Below are positions 4 to 18,115 of a stretch of DNA of 24,545 bases, in pieces. The notes under the pieces were generated by a model. The model saw nothing but the letters and a program-made list of their open reading frames with translations. It did no database searches and was not told where the DNA came from. Within the stretch, counting starts at the first letter, position 1. The number at the start of each line of letters is the position of its first letter. The stretch is from IMG/VR virus record IMGVR_UViG_2579778797_000010; one strand, written 5' to 3'. The DNA comes from a virus (taxonomy: Duplodnaviria > Heunggongvirae > Uroviricota > Caudoviricetes). A program made the translations under genes and the position numbers.

Positions 4-486
4 TCAATATTCCAGACAGACTCGCGGTTCATTTAAGCATCCATGCCCGCCCTGAACTCCGGGCACACCGTAAGTAAAATCAGCCACCCACAGCTGGTCA
101 GGACGTTCTGCCACGAACTGACGGTTTACGCGGTCGCCTGCGGCAACGGCTTTCCGGCTGATGGTCGTACGGACCTTTTTACCCCGGAGAACACCGGCAA
201 GTCCCATAACCGCCATGAGACGTGCCACAGTGCATCTGGCCACTCTGATACCTTCCCGTAACAACTGACGCCAGACTTTACGCACACCGTATACCTGGTG
301 ATTTTCATCGTATACGCGCTGTATCTCTTTCTTCAGCCAGTCATCGCGCTGCGCACGGGCACTGCGTTTATCCGGATGATGTCGTTGTTGCTGACAGTGG
401 TAATACGTTGACGGGGCAATATGCAGTTCGCTGCATAGCGGTCCGACCCCGTACTGCTCACGCAGCTTATCCAGCAGTGGCATCAT
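4..486 (-). pseudogene. IS3-family transposase OrfB, truncated (only N-terminal ~139 codons are transposase-like)
   Basis: Translation matches the IS3-family OrfB N-terminus up to QLWVADFTY (first D of the DDE motif), then diverges and stops at 4-6. Confidence 0.8.
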
Positions 487-863
487 TTTTTCCAGAGGCG
501 GTCGAACTCCGCCTTCGCAAAATAAGCGGAAGCCTGGCGAAGGATATCGTTACTGCGGCGCAGTTCACGATTTTCACGTTCCAGCTCTTTCAGACGCTGA
601 CGTTCAGCGGTGGTGAGCCCGCCATCACCGCTTCCGGTATCCCGCTCATGCTGGCGTACCCAGACACGCAGAGTCTCCGGCGTACAGCCAATCTTTGGAG
701 CAATGGAACAAATTGTCGCCCATTGTGAGTCATATTCGCCCTGACTTTCCAGAACCATACGGACTGCCCGTTGACGGACTTCGGGGGAAAAACGAGTATT
801 TTTAGTCATCCTGTTTACCTCTTTCTCAGGGAGTTTAGTCTCCAGGATTCCCGGGGCGGTTCA
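70..863 (-). mobile_element. Partial IS3-family insertion sequence (IS629/IS1203-like), distal part missing
   Basis: Minus-strand terminal inverted repeat TGAACCGCCCCGGGAATCC ends at 863. orfA and orfB overlap at 483-486. orfB similarity stops just after the conserved ADFTY motif near nt 70. Confidence 0.75.
483..809 (-). CDS. IS3-family transposase OrfA (HTH and leucine-zipper part), IS629-like
   Basis: 108-aa [22 protein letters not shown]...[33 protein letters not shown] at 807-809. Ends in GGAAAAAATGATG, where the orfB ATG overlaps the stop (typical -1 frameshift window). Confidence 0.85.
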
Positions 864-3948: not shown

Positions 3949-4155
3949 CTTCATTTTCACTTTTTTAAATCCAACGACAGACGGCTGGCATTTAAGTATT
4001 GTGAAATATTATCAAATGTAATCATCATTGATTTACAAAAGATACATTTTGCCCCGAAAGGATTCATGTCAGAAACATCAAAAGATGATGTTCTATACTG
4101 GGAACCATGACAACACGGGCATCTAAAGTGAATATGGTTTGTAATATTGTCTACC

Positions 4156-4368
4156 TCAAAGCGCCACTACATGAACAGCGGCAGGACCTTTAGGTCCGTT
4201 CTCAATACCAAATTCAACTTCCTGATTCTCAGTTAATGTTTTGAAATCGTTGCTCTGAATTGCTGAGAAATGGACAAACACATCTTTGCTGCCATCTTTC
4301 GGCGTGATGAAACCAAAACCTTTTTCAGGGTTAAACCATTTCACTAAACCAGTCATTTTGTTAGACAT
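4156..4368 (-). CDS. cspI: Cold shock protein CspI
   Basis: 70-aa product [70 protein letters not shown]; ATG at 4366-4368 checked. Confidence 0.95.
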
Positions 4369-4731
4369 AATTATTACCTTTTGAAGAAATTAGCCCTTGG
4401 GCAGAATGGTCCGAAAAAAAATATCAGAGAGAAAAACCAACAAGGAAATCTCAAGAGGTACAAATAATAAAATTATAACAATGACTGCTTCAGATAAATT
4501 TGTAACAAACCAGAACACCATTAACGCATGATTAACCACCCATAGCAAGGATTACTTTTGTAAAGAAAAACACAGCAATGAAAGAATAGCTTTATTTATT
4601 AATAATAACGTGTCATTCTGATTAAGACCTTTTATCTTACCCTTAAGATTTCAGGAGTTTTGGCTCATGGAAGAGTCCTTTTTATTTAAATTTTACATTC
4701 CGCGATGTAAATGTTCCGATTTAATATTACC

Positions 4732-6760: not shown

Positions 6761-7040
6761 AGATTGTGGTGCTTTTTGTGGGAGTCATCCACTTACGCAC
6801 TTTGTTTTGCCATGCCAGCAGTTAGCTTCTGCTGTAAAACTATTCATGCAGCAAACCTGCACTTCACCACAATGGTTAGCATACTTTTCCTGATTAAGAT
6901 TTTGCCAAATATGCTGGCCATTGTTTCATGTATTGGACCTCCTTAATTTTTATTAAAGAAATCCAATATTCACTACTCTGTCCGTATCTCTACTCAGGCA
7001 TCAGCCTTCTTCGTTATCGTATACAGACGAGCGATGAATT

Positions 7041-7256
7041 TTAATCAGTAATGATGACATTTGCTGCTGCAGGACCTTTAGCACCACTCTCTATAGAGAA
7101 GGTAACCTTTTGACCTTCAAATAAGGTTCGATAATTATCATTCTGAATCGCAGAAAAATGCACAAACACATCTTTACTACCATCAACAGGAGAAATAAAG
7201 CCGAAACCTTTATCAGCGTTAAACCATTTTACTAAACCAGTCATTTTATTTGACAT
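7041..7256 (-). CDS. cspB: Cold shock protein CspB
   Basis: 71-aa product [71 protein letters not shown]; start and stop verified. Confidence 0.95.
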
Positions 7257-7556
7257 TCTACATTCCTTAACTTGAGCCTTTCGGCATAAATGGTTTGCAT
7301 AACAGAAACGACTTCGTACTTAATTGGAGAGACTCAAAGAAGGAATAAGTGAATAACACCTGAAATGAGAACTGCTTTAGTAAACTACTTCGTATATCGT
7401 CTGTTCTTCAAACCGACGCAATCATTAACGCATAGTTGAACATATGAAGCAATGTTTATTTTAGACATCCAGCCATCTTCAACCCCATCAAAAAACTATA
7501 GCTTTCTTCAGGAACGTGTGTATAGTGCGCCAAGTTATCAGTATTAAGGAATTTTT

Positions 7557-10820: not shown

Positions 10821-10976
10821 TTACTCCTCAGGTTCGTAAGCTGTGAAGACAGCGACCTCCGTCTGGCCGGTTCGGATTCGTACCTCGCAGAGGTCTTTCC
10901 TCGTTACCAGTGCCGTCACTATGACGGTTAAACAGATGACGATCAGGGCGATTAACATCGCCTTTTGCTGCTTCAT
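10821..10976 (-). CDS. hokD: Hok-family membrane toxin HokD (RelF)
   Basis: Hand-translated codon by codon to MKQQKAMLIALIVICLTVIVTALVTRKDLCEVRIRTGQTEVAVFTAYEPEE (51 aa); below the ORF-track cutoff. Confidence 0.95.
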   Translation of the reverse strand: MKQQKAMLIALIVICLTVIVTALVTRKDLCEVRIRTGQTEVAVFTAYEPEE

Positions 10977-11047
10977 AGCCTGCTTCTCCTGTCAACGCAA
11001 AGCAGAAGTGTCACCTTCGGTGCGAAACAGAGATGTCATGCTTTGGT

Positions 11048-11335
11048 TCAGAGAATGCGTTTGACCGCCTCGCTATATACTTCCGAGCGTTCTCTTTTCC
11101 CAACAGAAATCACGAAAACGACAACTTTCTCGTCTATAACCTGGTATACAAGGCGATAGCCTGAAGACCGGAGCTTAATCTTGTAACAATCAGGCATACC
11201 ACGGAGCTTGTTTGCTTCAATCCGGGGTGACTCAAGTACTTCAACCAGCTTCTTTTTCAACTGTTCACGTACCGTCGAGCCCAGCTTTCGCCATTCCTTT
11301 AGTGCCCGCTCGTCAAAATCCAGAAAATACGCCAT
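11048..11335 (-). CDS. relE: RelE mRNA-interferase toxin
   Basis: 95-aa product MAYFLDFDERALKEWRKLGSTVREQLKKKLVEVLESPRIEANKLRGMPDCYKIKLRSSGYRLVYQVIDEKVVVFVISVGKRERSEVYSEAVKRIL. Confidence 0.95.
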   Translation of the reverse strand: MAYFLDFDERALKEWRKLGSTVREQLKKKLVEVLESPRIEANKLRGMPDCYKIKLRSSGYRLVYQVIDEKVVVFVISVGKRERSEVYSEAVKRIL

Positions 11336-11574
11336 CAGAGTTCATCCAGCGTCACACGTACTGGCTTAGGATTACGAAGCCGTTCTTTCACTATCTCCAC
11401 AAGTTCAGCATCTTCATCACTCAGGAGTGTCTGTTTGAACGGCAAGCGTTCATTGTCAGCGATATACTCGAGCATGAGACGAAGCGCTTCAGAAGGAGTT
11501 ACACCCATTTTTTCAAGCGCGGCGTAAGAACGCGCTTTAAGTTCATCGTCAATACGCAGGTTAATGCTACCCAT
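11335..11574 (-). CDS. relB: RelB antitoxin
   Basis: 79-aa product MGSINLRIDDELKARSYAALEKMGVTPSEALRLMLEYIADNERLPFKQTLLSDEDAELVEIVKERLRNPKPVRVTLDEL; stop overlaps the relE start. Confidence 0.95.
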   Translation of the reverse strand: MGSINLRIDDELKARSYAALEKMGVTPSEALRLMLEYIADNERLPFKQTLLSDEDAELVEIVKERLRNPKPVRVTLDEL

Positions 11575-11585
11575 GTCTTACACCT

Positions 11586-11611
11586 CTTGTAATTACAAAT
11601 GTCATTACAAG
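11586..11611. promoter_or_regulatory. relO-type operator palindrome in the relBE promoter
   Basis: CTTGTAATTACAAATGTCATTACAAG: inverted CTTGTAAT / ATTACAAG arms immediately upstream of relB. Confidence 0.65.
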
Positions 11612-11904
11612 TATCGCACTACAACATGCTTAGGGCAAGTCACGAAGGAAGTCAGAAAGTAGTCGTAAGAACGGTGATCACTGTCCGCTTTGTGCCAGGA
11701 GCAGCCATTGCTAAGTCCATCCTGTATTGTGCAGGTCAGCTCGTTTTTAAAGAGTCCGGCCATCATCTTACTGGTACAGACACCATATACTTTGTGACGG
11801 TCAGGCTACATATGCACAACTCAACTTATTCATCTATTTTTTGCTTTAGCATGTCAGTGTTGCTTTCTCGTCGGCGGGTGAGCGGTGACCTGACCTGTCG
11901 ATAA
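11599..11904 (+). CDS. Hypothetical ORF divergent from relB (ydfV position); coding status doubtful
   Basis: 101-codon ORF whose ATG lies inside the relO operator; low-complexity, non-protein-like composition. Confidence 0.25.
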   Translation: MSLQVSHYNMLRASHEGSQKVVVRTVITVRFVPGAAIAKSILYCAGQLVFKESGHHLTGTDTIYFVTVRLHMHNSTYSSIFCFSMSVLLSRRRVSGDLTCR

Positions 11905-12056
11905 AGGAACGTAGCACGTTTTATGCAACACCCGCATGCGGCAGAAAATTATTGCCGAACGTTTACCCCTGTCAACAAGCTTTACTTTCTGAGGCGCGCC
12001 AGCCCGCGAGGAAAACAATCTGAACATCAAACAATTAATGACACAAGAAATACGAT

Positions 12057-12083
12057 TAAAGATTTTTTTGTGCATGCCGATAG
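12057..12083 (+). promoter_or_regulatory. Sigma-28 (FliA) promoter of flxA
   Basis: TAAAGATT, 11 bp, GCCGATAG matches the sigma-28 consensus TAAAGTTT-N11-GCCGATAA; ~24 bp upstream of the flxA ATG. Confidence 0.65.
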
Positions 12084-12106
12084 TGCTTTTTTAAAAGGAG
12101 AAATCT

Positions 12107-12439
12107 ATGTCTGTCACAATTCAGGGAAATACCTCAACCGTTATTTCAAACAACTCCGCCCCGGAAGGAACATCAGAAATAGCCAAAATCACAAGACAAA
12201 TTCAGGTGCTGACTGAAAAGCTTGGGAAAATCTCATCGGAAGAGGGGATGACGACACAGCAGAAAAAAGAAATGGCTGCATTGGTACAGAAGCAAATTGA
12301 AAGCCTCAGGGCTCAACTGGAGCAGTTGTTAAGGCAGCAGGCAGAGAAAAAGAATAAAGACGCGACAGTTCAGCCTGATAAAAAAGAAGAGAAAAAAGAC
12401 GATACAAATACCGCTGGCACCATTGATATTTACGTCTAA
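12107..12439 (+). CDS. flxA: FlxA (FliA-regulated protein)
   Basis: 110-aa product MSVTIQGNTSTVISNNSAPEGTSEIAKITRQIQVLTEKLGKISSEEGMTTQQKKEMAALVQKQIESLRAQLEQLLRQQAEKKNKDATVQPDKKEEKKDDTNTAGTIDIYV. Confidence 0.95.
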   Translation: MSVTIQGNTSTVISNNSAPEGTSEIAKITRQIQVLTEKLGKISSEEGMTTQQKKEMAALVQKQIESLRAQLEQLLRQQAEKKNKDATVQPDKKEEKKDDTNTAGTIDIYV

Positions 12440-12453
12440 GTGACAGCCGTATT

Positions 12454-12476
12454 GTGGCCCTCATCGGGCCACTTTT
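12454..12476 (+). terminator. Intrinsic terminator of flxA
   Basis: GTGGCCC-TCATC-GGGCCAC followed by TTTTCG. Confidence 0.7.
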
Positions 12477-12639
12477 CGCCATCAGCCTTTTCTTTAAAGA
12501 CATATTATCTTTGTATCATTTCTGATAGTTAACATTACAAGATATAAGTAATGGACGCACTCCCAATTAGTCTATTTAAATCGCCACGAGTTTAACTGAC
12601 AACCCATGATCAATTATGAATTGCAACTATTTCTGTAGT

Positions 12640-14280
12640 CACTTTTGTGGGGACAGTCCACAAAACTGCCAACTTCCGCTTCTTGCTCTTAGCGGACATT
12701 AGCATAGGCTATTTACCATAACGCCTCATTACGCGCACCGCCCAGACTGACTCAGCGCGTTTCTGGCATATCCCCGGTAAAACAAGTAACAAACCACCCG
12801 AAAATGAACACCAGAAACGCGACTTAAGAATCTACCCTATGAATGGATATGCACTCAACCGAATCGATCTTGGTTTCAATCTATTTTATCGGGATCAGGC
12901 TTCTTTTTAGGTAACTTCGGGGGCTTAACTTGCTGATGACTTTGCGTTCGGCGCGTAAGCCAGGGATGGTCAGCTTTAGATTTAACATAGTATTTTGAGC
13001 GTAAATCAATACGGGCATTATCCACTCGTTCATGGACACTCTTTTCATCATCCAGTGGTATAGGCTCCGGGCCATCAACATACTTTTCCCAGCCCAGCGC
13101 TTTCCCGTCATACAGAACGTTAATTTCACCGTCAAAGTTCTCACATACAGTAACAACTGAATGCCTAAGTCGATATCCCCGGCCCTCACTGCGTACCTGA
13201 AACGCACTGCTTTTGTACTGGAAAGTGAGATTTTTAGACAGAACGCGCTTCGCCTGTAGGCTGAAGATATAACCCAGTTCCTCTTCAGAATGGTGCACAT
13301 CAAGATGAGCATTATCAGTAGTACGAGGCGACGTAGCGAACCGGTTGTTATAGGCTTCAATAAAGGTCGGCAACCATGCATTTGCTGTTTCAATATCACT
13401 GATATTCTGAAGCCGCATTTCTTTGACCAGCCTGTCCTGTAGTGTCTGATTGGCGCGCTCTACCCGCCCTTTTGCCTGCGGGCTGTTGGCATGGATTGGC
13501 TCGATGCCCAGTGTCTTTATCGCACGAGTGAACTGGGTCAGCTCACCTTCCCGCTCTGGGTTATTTACCCTGAATATACTGTGTCTATCAGAGTAGAGAG
13601 CGAGCGGTACGCCATGATCATTAAGGTAACCCCGGAGGGTTTCCATGTAAGCCCGGGTTGTTTCAGCAGGCACAAAACGCAACGCCATCAACGCACTGGT
13701 GGCATCATCAATGAAAACGATCAGTGTACATCTGGGGCCTCGATTTTCAAACCAGTCATGAGGTGAGCCATCAATCTGGATCAGTTCACCGTAAGATGGT
13801 CGTCGCATGCGGCGTTGATATATACGGGCAATTTTACGACGGCGTTCACGCCATAACCCCTCTTCTATCATCCACTTTCTGAGAGTTTCAACGGATAAAG
13901 ATAAACCGTGTATCTCGCGCAATTTTTCGCACGCAAACGTAGGTCCAAAATCAGCGTAACGGCCTTTGAGGAGTGAAATTACTGTTGCTCTGAATTCAGT
14001 AGAAAAGGAATTATTAGGACGCTTTCCACGTCGGTGGGAAACCAGACCAGAAGGCCCTTCATTTCTATACCGTTGCACCAGACGTTTAACCTGCCGAATA
14101 GAAATGCCAATGCGTGCCGCAGCTTGTTCCTGAGTAATATGTCGATTAATTGACTCCTGAATAATCTGAAGTCGGTGGAGTTCCTTATGACTCATCGTAA
14201 CAGTCTCTTTGATCATGAAAAATCCCCCAGAGAATTGTCTGGGGACATTTTAGAATGGTTCAAAGGGGACATTACAGCTT
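12640..14280 (-). mobile_element. Insertion element carrying an rve/DDE transposase (IS481- or ISNCY-like); boundaries approximate
   Basis: Single large transposase gene with HTH N-terminus. GGGGACA motifs at 12648-12654 and at 14241-14247 and 14265-14271. Terminal inverted repeats could not be resolved by eye. Confidence 0.45.
12876..14216 (-). CDS. DDE transposase with integrase-core (rve) domain and N-terminal HTH
   Basis: 446 aa; HTH (ITQEQAAARIGISIRQVKRLVQRY), catalytic candidates in ELIQIDGSPHDW, ALYSDRHSIF and PQAKGRVERANQTLQDRL (D, D, E spacing typical of retroviral-integrase-type transposases). Confidence 0.85.
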   Translation of the reverse strand: MIKETVTMSHKELHRLQIIQESINRHITQEQAAARIGISIRQVKRLVQRYRNEGPSGLVSHRRGKRPNNSFSTEFRATVISLLKGRYADFGPTFACEKLREIHGLSLSVETLRKWMIEEGLWRERRRKIARIYQRRMRRPSYGELIQIDGSPHDWFENRGPRCTLIVFIDDATSALMALRFVPAETTRAYMETLRGYLNDHGVPLALYSDRHSIFRVNNPEREGELTQFTRAIKTLGIEPIHANSPQAKGRVERANQTLQDRLVKEMRLQNISDIETANAWLPTFIEAYNNRFATSPRTTDNAHLDVHHSEEELGYIFSLQAKRVLSKNLTFQYKSSAFQVRSEGRGYRLRHSVVTVCENFDGEINVLYDGKALGWEKYVDGPEPIPLDDEKSVHERVDNARIDLRSKYYVKSKADHPWLTRRTQSHQQVKPPKLPKKKPDPDKID

Positions 14281-14669
14281 GGTGTTAACAATAGCCTGCT
14301 TCTCCTTGCCTTCCGGCACTCGCGACAGATTATGTTTAGACGACTGTCGTAGCGACGTATTTCTCCGTCAGGTAATGACCAGATAAGGTCCGGATCAACC
14401 ACAGCAGGTTTCTTCACCTTTGCCCTCGAGAGTTTTTTGCGGGCGTTTTGCCAGTCCTTACGCGCCTGTTCAGACGGGAATAACCCGTAACCAGAGCTGT
14501 ATACATCGCCACTGGCAACCAGCTCTCTGGCCAGAACGCTCATCAGATATCTTGTTGCCCCAGTTTTAGCTTCCAGTTGTCGTAACGTCTCGCGCCCACT
14601 CTGGCGTACGAGTTCCACCACCTGCCCTTTAATTTTTTCCCGCTCTTCTTGTGTAAAAACTTTTGCCAC
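14250..14669 (-). CDS. Hypothetical protein (139 aa) co-transcribed downstream of the replication initiator; C-terminus may be altered by the IS insertion
   Basis: GTG start at 14667-14669 with strong AGGAGG SD, 40 nt after the rep stop. Last ~9 codons are encoded by the GGGGACA-containing sequence next to the transposase. Confidence 0.5.
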   Translation of the reverse strand: MAKVFTQEEREKIKGQVVELVRQSGRETLRQLEAKTGATRYLMSVLARELVASGDVYSSGYGLFPSEQARKDWQNARKKLSRAKVKKPAVVDPDLIWSLPDGEIRRYDSRLNIICRECRKARRSRLLLTPSCNVPFEPF

Positions 14670-18056: not shown

Positions 18057-18115
18057 TTTTCTGGTGACGTTTGGCGGTATCAGTTTTACTCCGTGACTGC
18101 TCTGCCGCCCTTTTT
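18057..18115 (+). ncRNA. dicF: DicF small RNA (ftsZ/cell-division inhibitor sRNA)
   Basis: TTTCTGGTGACGTTTGGCGGTATCAGTTTTACTCCGTGACTGCTCTGCCGCCCTTTTT matches DicF as I recall it, including the terminal GC hairpin and U-tail. Confidence 0.85.

Follow-up and report, generated by a model that had tools for sequence, protein, structure and literature searches.

The window analysed here is the whole of a 24,545-nucleotide stretch of DNA from a virus of the Caudoviricetes (IMG/VR record IMGVR_UViG_2579778797_000010), and it contains a gene, tnp, for a transposase of 446 amino acids (aa). We conclude that the mobile unit around this gene is very probably a 3301-bp transposon at positions 10990–14290, which belongs to the IS1202 family, carries the toxin–antitoxin (TA) genes relBE together with flxA, and is flanked by a 15-bp target-site duplication (TSD) at the start codon of hokD. 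Read from 14290 down to 10990, it comprises the left inverted repeat (IRL), tnp, a hairpin, the cargo (flxA and ydfV), relB, relE, and the right inverted repeat (IRR); all features are listed in Table 1. A preliminary description of the window had located an element between flxA and the replication module, at 12480–14300, and could not place its ends. That location proved too narrow, as flxA, ydfV, relB, and relE all lie inside 10990–14290, and a classical IRL (to 14290), a classical IRR (from 10990), and the 15-bp TSD exist beyond the coordinates that were flagged. The two inverted repeats put the ends elsewhere, which in substance overturns the boundaries 12480–14300.

The outer limits of the unit were read from sequences that share it in other contexts. 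The sequence that the window shares with copies on plasmids of Klebsiella, Enterobacter, and Phytobacter starts at about 12671 and stops exactly at 14290 (...GGTGTTAACA), with divergence past both points, and the IRL is identical at more than 100 loci. The two copies of GGGGACA at 14241–14271 are subterminal repeats of the IRL, at offsets 20–26 and 44–50 from the tip, and the IRR mirrors them with TGTCACC and TGTCATG at offsets 20–26 and 45–51. The IRR sequence also bounds 18 other units flanked by TSDs, and its tip, TGTCAAC, is common to an insertion sequence (IS) of Hahella, described below. Outside the repeats, the duplicated segment ATAGCCTGCTTCTCC consists of the Shine-Dalgarno (SD) region of hokD and the AT of its ATG; the start codon reads CAT at 10974–10976 on the plus strand. 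The 16 bp outside the IRL, ATAGCCTGCTTCTCCT, recur at 10975–10990 at the hokD start codon, so that the TSD is 16 bp if the ambiguous T is counted.

Uninterrupted target sites gave the same limits. hokD is free of the element in most Escherichia coli genomes, and these loci cease to match the window at 10990 and cease to match a query across the leader–IRL junction at the final base before the IRL. Comparison with uninterrupted homologous loci, which the preliminary description had proposed for defining the junctions, therefore located both breaks exactly. The empty sites L094 and L095 read ...TTC ATAGCCTGCTTCTCCT TGCCTTTCGGCAC..., with one copy of the TSD and the full hok leader; after the 16-mer, their sequence begins TGCCTTTCGGCACGTAAGAGG. 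A simple insertion of the same 3301-bp unit, with an intact leader beside the IRL, is present in Shigella flexneri (L027), in many prophage contigs, and in 675 E. coli genomes. A repeat search within 12400–14350 revealed no credible terminal inverted repeat or TSD, the best inverted repeats being internal chance pairs, in agreement with the preliminary description, which had seen none within 12480–14300. The reason is that the second end and one TSD copy are situated about 1.7 kb beyond the interval that was flagged.

Table 1. Features of the transposon, its target, and the adjoining sequence in the window
Feature	Positions	Strand	Basis
hokD coding sequence, the target gene outside the transposon; intact, severed from its own leader	10821–10976	-	Open reading frame (ORF); annotated hokD in identical E. 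coli records
TSD copy beside IRR, ATAGCCTGCTTCTCC	10975–10989		Exact repeat of 14291–14305; single in empty hokD sites
IRR, TGTCAACGCAAAGCAGAAGTGTCACC; TGTC-type subterminal sites at 11009–11015 and 11034–11040	10990–11015	+	19/26 match to IRL, read inward
Conserved right arm: IRR, relE, relB, relBE promoter region, inner edge TCACTGTCCGCTTTGTGCC	10990–11696		Right-arm alignment diverges at 11696/11697
relE	11048–11335	-	In right arm
relB	11335–11574	-	In right arm
ydfV ORF	11599–11904	+	Mostly within cargo
Cargo of this version: most of ydfV, flxA, 235 bp with palindrome and third GGGGACA	11697–12674		Differs between units
flxA	12107–12439	+	Pfam PF14282 match
Hairpin TCCGCT-N10-AGCGGACA, inner edge of transposase module	12675–12698		Alignment of 13 units
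Transposase gene tnp, 446 aa, helix-turn-helix (HTH) + DDE (D149, D210, E253, Q260)	12876–14216	-	ORF, Pfam, NCBIfam, alignment
Left end: IRL TGTTAACACCAAGCTGTAATGTCCCC (14290 down to 14265), second AATGTCCCC repeat at 14241–14249	14241–14290	-	Sharing across contexts stops at 14290
Chimeric 139-aa DUF977 ORF; last 19 codons from hokD SD/TSD and IRL	14250–14669	-	Pfam PF06163 over residues 1–121
TSD copy beside IRL, ATAGCCTGCTTCTCC	14291–14305		Exact repeat of 10975–10989
hokD leader remnant TTGCCTTCCGGCAC; last 10 nt (14310–14319) are the microhomology junction with DUF977	14306–14319		Empty-site and DUF977 comparison

The unit is not confined to one host or one locus. Loci were fetched with the transposase, taking one genome per species, plus plasmid records, and 18 further units with the same IRL and IRR were obtained, with lengths of 2.6–12.8 kb. 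An exact, site-specific TSD flanks 17 of the 18; it is 15 or 16 bp in 14 units and 13–14 bp in three more. At L031, the repeat is only 10 nt, ahead of a second tandem element, and at L085, only a degenerate repeat is present. Perfect TSDs occur at five sites outside hok genes (L014, L019, L026, L033, and L047). Two arms are constant, the left at 12675–14290 and the right at 10990–11696 in window coordinates, and in 17/19 units, relE ends 61 nt away from the tip of the IRR and relB comes next, the exceptions being two divergent Scandinavium elements. The cargo between the arms differs: ydfV and flxA in the window, chrBA and ncrABCY in a 12,843-bp version, and other genes elsewhere. This 12,843-bp version was found in two different plasmid hok genes (L012 and L015) and also, flanked by a perfect TSD of 16 bp, in an unrelated gene on a plasmid of K. 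michiganensis (L014). The Enterobacter plasmid pEnt261 carries the 3.3-kb flxA version of the window at 99.4% identity within a plasmid hok gene, flanked by the 15-mer of that gene. In pEnt261 (L002) and a K. aerogenes plasmid (L013), relE gave split or low-identity tblastn matches and relB was 100% identical; some plasmid copies may have a disrupted relE.

A simpler relative was found on the chromosome of Hahella sp. SMD15-11 (L035–L045), where a plain 1449-bp IS is present in at least nine almost identical copies, two of which form a tandem pair. Its transposase is 62% identical, its tips (TGTTA... and TGTCAAC...) are as in the window unit, both ends have doubled AATGTCCCC repeats, and nine copies are flanked by TSDs of 15–16 bp. 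Since the Hahella IS has the same ends and the same long TSD, these are properties of the transposase lineage.

The transposase itself could be assigned with several signatures. Its N-terminus matches HTH_28, HTH_29, HTH_32, and HTH_23 and its core matches rve_3 in Pfam, and it scores 465 bits against the NCBIfam model NF033594 ('ISNCY family transposase', cutoff 250), which bears out the preliminary description of an HTH plus DDE (rve) transposase. In E. coli genomes, the gene bears the PGAP name 'IS1202-like element ISEsa1 family transposase', and the stretch 12440–14300 is present at at least 80% coverage in 785 of 5,426 complete E. coli genomes. D149, D210, E253, and Q260 (position E+7) are unchanged across an alignment reaching 34% identity; a Q rather than K or R at E+7 of the catalytic E is the hallmark of the IS1202 family (PMC10132070). 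At 446 aa, with an N-terminal HTH and an rve core, the protein falls within the family range of 394–507 aa. The IRL and IRR, which match at 19/26 positions and both begin with TGT, correspond to the imperfect terminal inverted repeats (TIRs) of about 22–29 bp. Among the TSD classes of the family (3–5, 16–17, and 27–28 bp), the 15 bp of the window (16 bp with the ambiguous T) is nearest to 16–17 bp. On these grounds, the protein is classed as a DDE transposase of the IS1202 family (ISNCY / IS1202 group). The organisation of a family IS (1.3–1.75 kb, with no passengers or one ORF in a transporter IS, tIS) is not seen in the 3301-bp unit, because it holds relB, relE, ydfV, and flxA and has relatives of up to 12,843 bp. 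By function, the unit is an IS1202-family element, and by organisation, it is a unit transposon. A PDB sequence search with the transposase gave a single marginal integrase-core match (E = 0.01), from which no structural inference was drawn. The protein differs at two aa from WP_004196353.1 of Klebsiella and Enterobacter plasmids, and the window copy, judged by its intact tnp and ends, is plausibly active.

In the mechanism that we propose, the transposase would bind two TGTC(C/A)CC sites about 24 bp apart at each end; as the duplications show, it joins the ends to target cuts with a stagger of 15–16 bp. DDE chemistry is established knowledge.

Two observations concern the annotation of the gene and a variant of the unit. 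Where E. coli chromosomes match this region at 100% identity (L001 3437–4777 corresponds to window 12876–14216), PGAP splits tnp into a 'pseudogene, missing C-terminus' and 'ydfW'. The same 446-aa gene is annotated as intact on plasmids, and the split looks like an annotation artefact derived from the K-12 gene name. A 3274-bp variant of the unit, with a 27-bp deletion that yields a two-piece match, is common among E. coli and prophage copies (for example, H83–H104, L100, and L106); PGAP annotates this match as 'ISNCY family transposase'.

The transposase module within the unit deserves separate treatment. The conserved module is 1616–1624 bp, and its inner edge is ragged over about 15 nt around the hairpin TGTCCGCT-N10-AGCGGACA in the alignment of 13 units. 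A related hairpin, CCGCTTCT..AGCGGACA, is located at the relB-side cargo junction. Both cargo junctions (12675–12698 and 11678–11696) thus lie at related hairpins that share TGTCCGCT/AGCGGACA, a motif resembling the TGTCCCC end repeats. The hairpins, together with the ragged cargo boundaries, hint at a preferred site of cargo exchange. The boundary at about 12667–12675 was considered as the right end and rejected; its junctions are ragged and a TSD is never found there.

Next to this edge, the imperfect palindrome reported in the preliminary description does exist, with arms at 12635–12650 and 12658–12673 that are 81% complementary, and 12635–12673 holds the third GGGGACA and an IRR-like tip, TGCCAAC. 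The GGGGACA motifs were correctly reported as direct repeats, with three copies on the plus strand, two of them at 14241–14247 and 14265–14271; the first copy lies at 12649–12655, not 12648–12654. The minus strand from 12673 down to 12649 matches the IRL at 16/26 positions in direct orientation, a marginal similarity, and 12649–12673 may derive from an older end, nested or tandem, or may be due to chance. The GGGGACA at 12649, just outside the conserved tnp module, may likewise occur by chance. As a marker of ends, GGGGACA was rejected: three copies in the window compare with 1.8 expected, at least three occurred in 25 of 100 shuffles, and only the two IRL copies are conserved.

Is the moving unit the whole 3301 bp, or the transposase module alone? 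A plain 1.6-kb ISEsa1-type IS (about 12667–14290) without a TSD might have inserted between flxA and DUF977, the 15-bp repeats being nearby hok-like sequences. ISEsa1 is indeed catalogued at 1609 bp, with a TIR of 15/22 and no TSD in multiple examples (PMC10132070), the DNA common to many plasmids begins at about 12671, and the module inner edge retains an IRR-like tip in degenerate form (TGCCAAC at 12667–12673; CGTCAACC in the ncr version, L003). Yet the junctions on that side vary over about 15 nt between units and give no precise end, and among 77 distinct IRL flanks, none repeats at about 1.6 kb; in the enterobacterial elements, all repeats adjoin ...CTGCTTTGCGTTGACA. Moreover, the 15-bp repeat copies the variant of hokD itself exactly and occurs once in empty sites, and non-hok sites have perfect 16-bp TSDs around whole units of 4.3–12.8 kb. 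The empty sites and the TSDs around larger units largely refute this explanation, which we regard as very unlikely. As far as sequence comparison can tell, the 1.6-kb module is not the moving unit in these copies, and the catalogued right end of ISEsa1 is probably not the functional one in them; a larger, TSD-flanked unit may explain why ISEsa1 (1609 bp) was catalogued without a TSD. Spread of the relBE...tnp block by homologous recombination, through hok homology or between IS copies, in place of transposition of the whole unit is highly improbable, even though hok leaders and coding sequences are alike enough to recombine, mismatched and clearly recombinant flanks occur at L154, L128, L181, and L208, and the window itself carries a secondary deletion. 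The two TSD copies are identical within each locus, match the local hok variant, and differ between loci, which argues for independent transposition rather than recombinational spread. The junction is also shifted by +1 at L013 and +9 at L023, and the identical 12,843-bp units stand both in two hok genes and, with a perfect 16-bp TSD, in a non-hok gene (L012, L015, and L014); duplications at non-homologous sites are impossible by recombination.

With transposition of the whole unit preferred, the choice of target was assessed from the site collection. Prophage and metagenome contigs were scanned for the exact IRL and pooled with the genome loci, giving about 31 site clusters. At least 12 of them are hok-type leaders with distinct sequences, which take the form ...GGCAAGGAG-N8-10-AT(G)/IRL. 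The hok hits are at the same position within 1 nt, apart from one hokE-like gene at +9. At hok sites, the IRL is on the leader side and relBE is read towards hok, in the same orientation in all cases but one, and GGCAA or AGCAA lies exactly 5' of the duplicated segment at the non-hok sites L019, L047, L162, and L165. The transposase would thus actively choose the hok initiation region, with a GGCAA-like motif immediately 5' to the segment that is duplicated; as a target sequence cue, the motif is suggestive only. Selection might produce the same enrichment if insertions in hok are tolerated on dispensable plasmid or prophage DNA, or are favoured for silencing the toxin. About half of the site clusters are indeed not hok, the simple Hahella IS sits at many unrelated sites, and hok loci reside on heavily sampled plasmids and prophages. 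Tolerance leaves unexplained, however, why at least 12 hok genes were struck at the same nucleotide within 1 nt and in the same orientation, as any leader or coding position would inactivate or spare hok equally, and the tandem arrays at one site (L031 and L226) suggest repeated homing. We consider it unlikely that selection, rather than transposase choice, accounts for the enrichment. Several points nevertheless weigh against what we propose. The TSD length is variable (13–16 bp), and the IRR tip is ambiguous by 1 bp; the 1.6-kb module may occasionally have moved alone, given the surviving IRR-like tip; hok is preferred as a target but not obligatory; the GGCAA motif is drawn from four non-hok sites and is absent at L033, L028, L193, and L156; and the enrichment could come partly from survival of insertions, as hok loci are on dispensable mobile DNA. 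Taking both sides together, we think it likely that an IS1202-type family of the Enterobacteriaceae actively homes to the SD/ATG of hok type I toxin genes, always in one orientation, with a constant arm that holds the type II module relBE and with exchangeable cargo, that relBEF of K-12 is a junction of such an element with its target and ydfW, flxA, and ydfV are transposon parts, and that 'ISEsa1, no TSD' refers to the transposase arm only.

Two kinds of unusual arrangement were seen among these sites. L030 (Citrobacter portucalensis) is reversed, with the IRL adjoining the hok coding side. In the tandem arrays of L031 (Leclercia) and L226 (metagenome), the IRR is followed by 10–15 bp and then by the IRL of a second element, which in L031 is a related one. 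On reading the junctions, no likeness to the XerC/D consensus of dif-like targets was seen, with no formal dif/XerCD motif search made.

The window also records what happened after insertion. Here and in 105 E. coli genomes, the TSD beside the IRL is followed by 14 nt of leader and then by DUF977. The parents of this junction are the empty site ...CTCCTTGCCTTTCGGCACGTAAGAGG and the uninterrupted DUF977 gene ...GCTCTTCCGGCACTCGCG, which share a 10-nt microhomology (CTTTCGGCAC in the leader, CTTCCGGCAC in DUF977). The 14-nt leader and the 10 nt shared with DUF977 point to a deletion across the microhomology. As a result, the 139-aa protein ends in CRECRK followed by ARRSRLLLTPSCNVPFEPF, as against CRECRKSE(V/A)MQR... 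in uninterrupted homologues. The preliminary description was right that the 3' end of this gene had been rewritten, and had ascribed it to the insertion; judging from the junction sequences, the chimeric C-terminus was made by the secondary microhomology deletion. The usual layout of a hok/sok locus, with the coding sequence behind its own leader, is no longer found in the window, where 14 nt of leader are left 3.3 kb away, and an Rfam scan of the window detected no hok/sok-type family, returning cspA elements, DicF, and an ALIL pseudoknot.

The following course of events is proposed. The unit would have landed in the translation-initiation region of hokD and duplicated the SD region and the AT of the ATG. 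This would have parted the hokD coding sequence from its leader (which in hok loci holds mok and sok) and placed it directly downstream of relBE, giving relBEF (relB-relE-hokD), which is known to be co-transcribed in E. coli K-12; relBE would serve as the transposon's own addiction module and replace the disrupted hok/sok function. In the window lineage, deletion across the 10-nt microhomology would then have removed the remaining hokD leader through to the 3' end of DUF977. In K-12, a further deletion would have taken the IRL and most of tnp, leaving ydfW.

The K-12 chromosome retains parts of the unit on both sides. The right arm and the hokD junction equal the relB-relE-hokD locus of K-12 at 100% identity. 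On the transposase side, K-12 matches only 12440–13060 of the window and then jumps to ydfX, and ydfW equals window 12876–13025, that is, the last 49 codons of tnp; the statement of the preliminary description that K-12 Qin has only remnants here is therefore upheld. Under its legacy name, intK, ydfW would be a phage integrase remnant. This label does not fit, as ydfW corresponds to the end of the DDE transposase gene, and no tyrosine or serine recombinase family matched in Pfam or NCBIfam. Co-transcription of relBE with relF/hokD is known (PMC3598666, PMC5120126), and Ramisetty & Santhosh (2016), as PMC6379469 cites them, noted that relBE had integrated into the hokD/mokD locus. In the accessible literature, the vehicle, ends, and duplication at relBEF/hokD of K-12 Qin are undescribed, and here the operon is a junction of transposon and target. 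Two further E. coli strains have lost other portions. After flxA, the transposase module is cut down to its first ~31 nt in FG92-1 (L007) and is absent from H7 (L008), whose match ends at window 12635 with IS1A next to it; both represent additional, independent products of transposon decay.

Elsewhere in the window, Rfam detected two cspA-type thermoregulator leaders at 4129–4514 (-) and 7025–7417 (-) and the DicF antisense RNA at 18059–18110 (+), which are consistent with a Qin-like prophage backbone. The ALIL pseudoknot lies at 412–528 (-), with a score of 120 bits, together with an ORF at 4–486 (-). ALIL is the frameshift element of the IS3 family, so an IS3-type element is probably present at the left edge of the window.

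Among known elements, the closest by transposase, ends, and TSD class is found within the IS1202 family, namely ISEsa1 (ISfinder; ISNCY / IS1202 group, Cronobacter sakazakii), whose PGAP family name the window transposase shares. Its 1609 bp compare with 1616–1624 bp for the tnp module of the window, and both lack a TSD around the module (PMC10132070). The ISEsa1 transposase is 439 aa, as against 446 aa here, in a comparison made through the PGAP name and the published description only. Unlike ISEsa1, the mobile unit here is 3.3 kb (12.8 kb elsewhere), has a distal IRR beside relE, and generates TSDs of 15–16 bp. In the published transposase tree, ISEsa1 and ISCARN112 form a separate subgroup (PMC10132070). 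ISTde1, ISCARN53, ISCARN62, ISCARN63, ISShha1, ISVbsp4, ISVisp7, and ISHahy13 have a 16–17-bp TSD, an HTH+DDE protein with Q at E+7, and imperfect TIRs of ~24–26 bp, as here (PMC10132070), but these members with 16–17-bp TSDs are single-gene IS of 1.3–1.75 kb, whereas the window unit carries a TA module and cargo. Insertion at a defined position and orientation beside a short conserved plasmid site is known in the same family from the ISAjo2 group and ISKpn21/ISSen13 (PMC10132070). These elements target dif-like sites on the XerC side and have TSDs of 3–5 bp, in contrast to the hok SD/ATG and 15–16 bp here. The transporter IS tISKpn21, tISKpn65, and tISRel10 are also IS1202-family elements with extra ORF(s) between tnp and one end, as here. 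They carry one unknown ORF, whereas a constant relBE arm and exchangeable cargo of up to ~10 kb are present here, and for this reason we call the element a unit transposon and not a tIS. With Tn7, it has in common a TnsB-like DDE core (per PMC10132070), multiple repeats per end at which the transposase presumably binds, and homing to a specific 'safe' site. It differs in that, besides tnp, only relE, relB, ydfV, and flxA were found as ORFs in the unit, with no tnsA, tnsC, tnsD, or tnsE, and in a TSD of 15–16 bp as against 5 bp. A search of the available literature found no description of the vehicle, ends, duplication, or hok homing of this element.

For the IS1202 family, the larger units offer an explanation for the anomaly of ISEsa1, recorded without a TSD in the paper on the family, and hok start regions are a second site preference in a family known so far for targeting dif. 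For E. coli, the model type II TA system relBE and the K-12 genes flxA, ydfV, and ydfW would be components of a transposon, and the relBE-hokD operon would have arisen by insertion, which bears on the interpretation of relBE/hokD physiology and of the polar effects of ΔrelBE. The 12.8-kb relative moves chromate and nickel resistance among plasmids, IncF-type and others, of Klebsiella, Enterobacter, and Phytobacter. Insertion into one addiction module by a transposon that itself bears another represents a competition between selfish elements.

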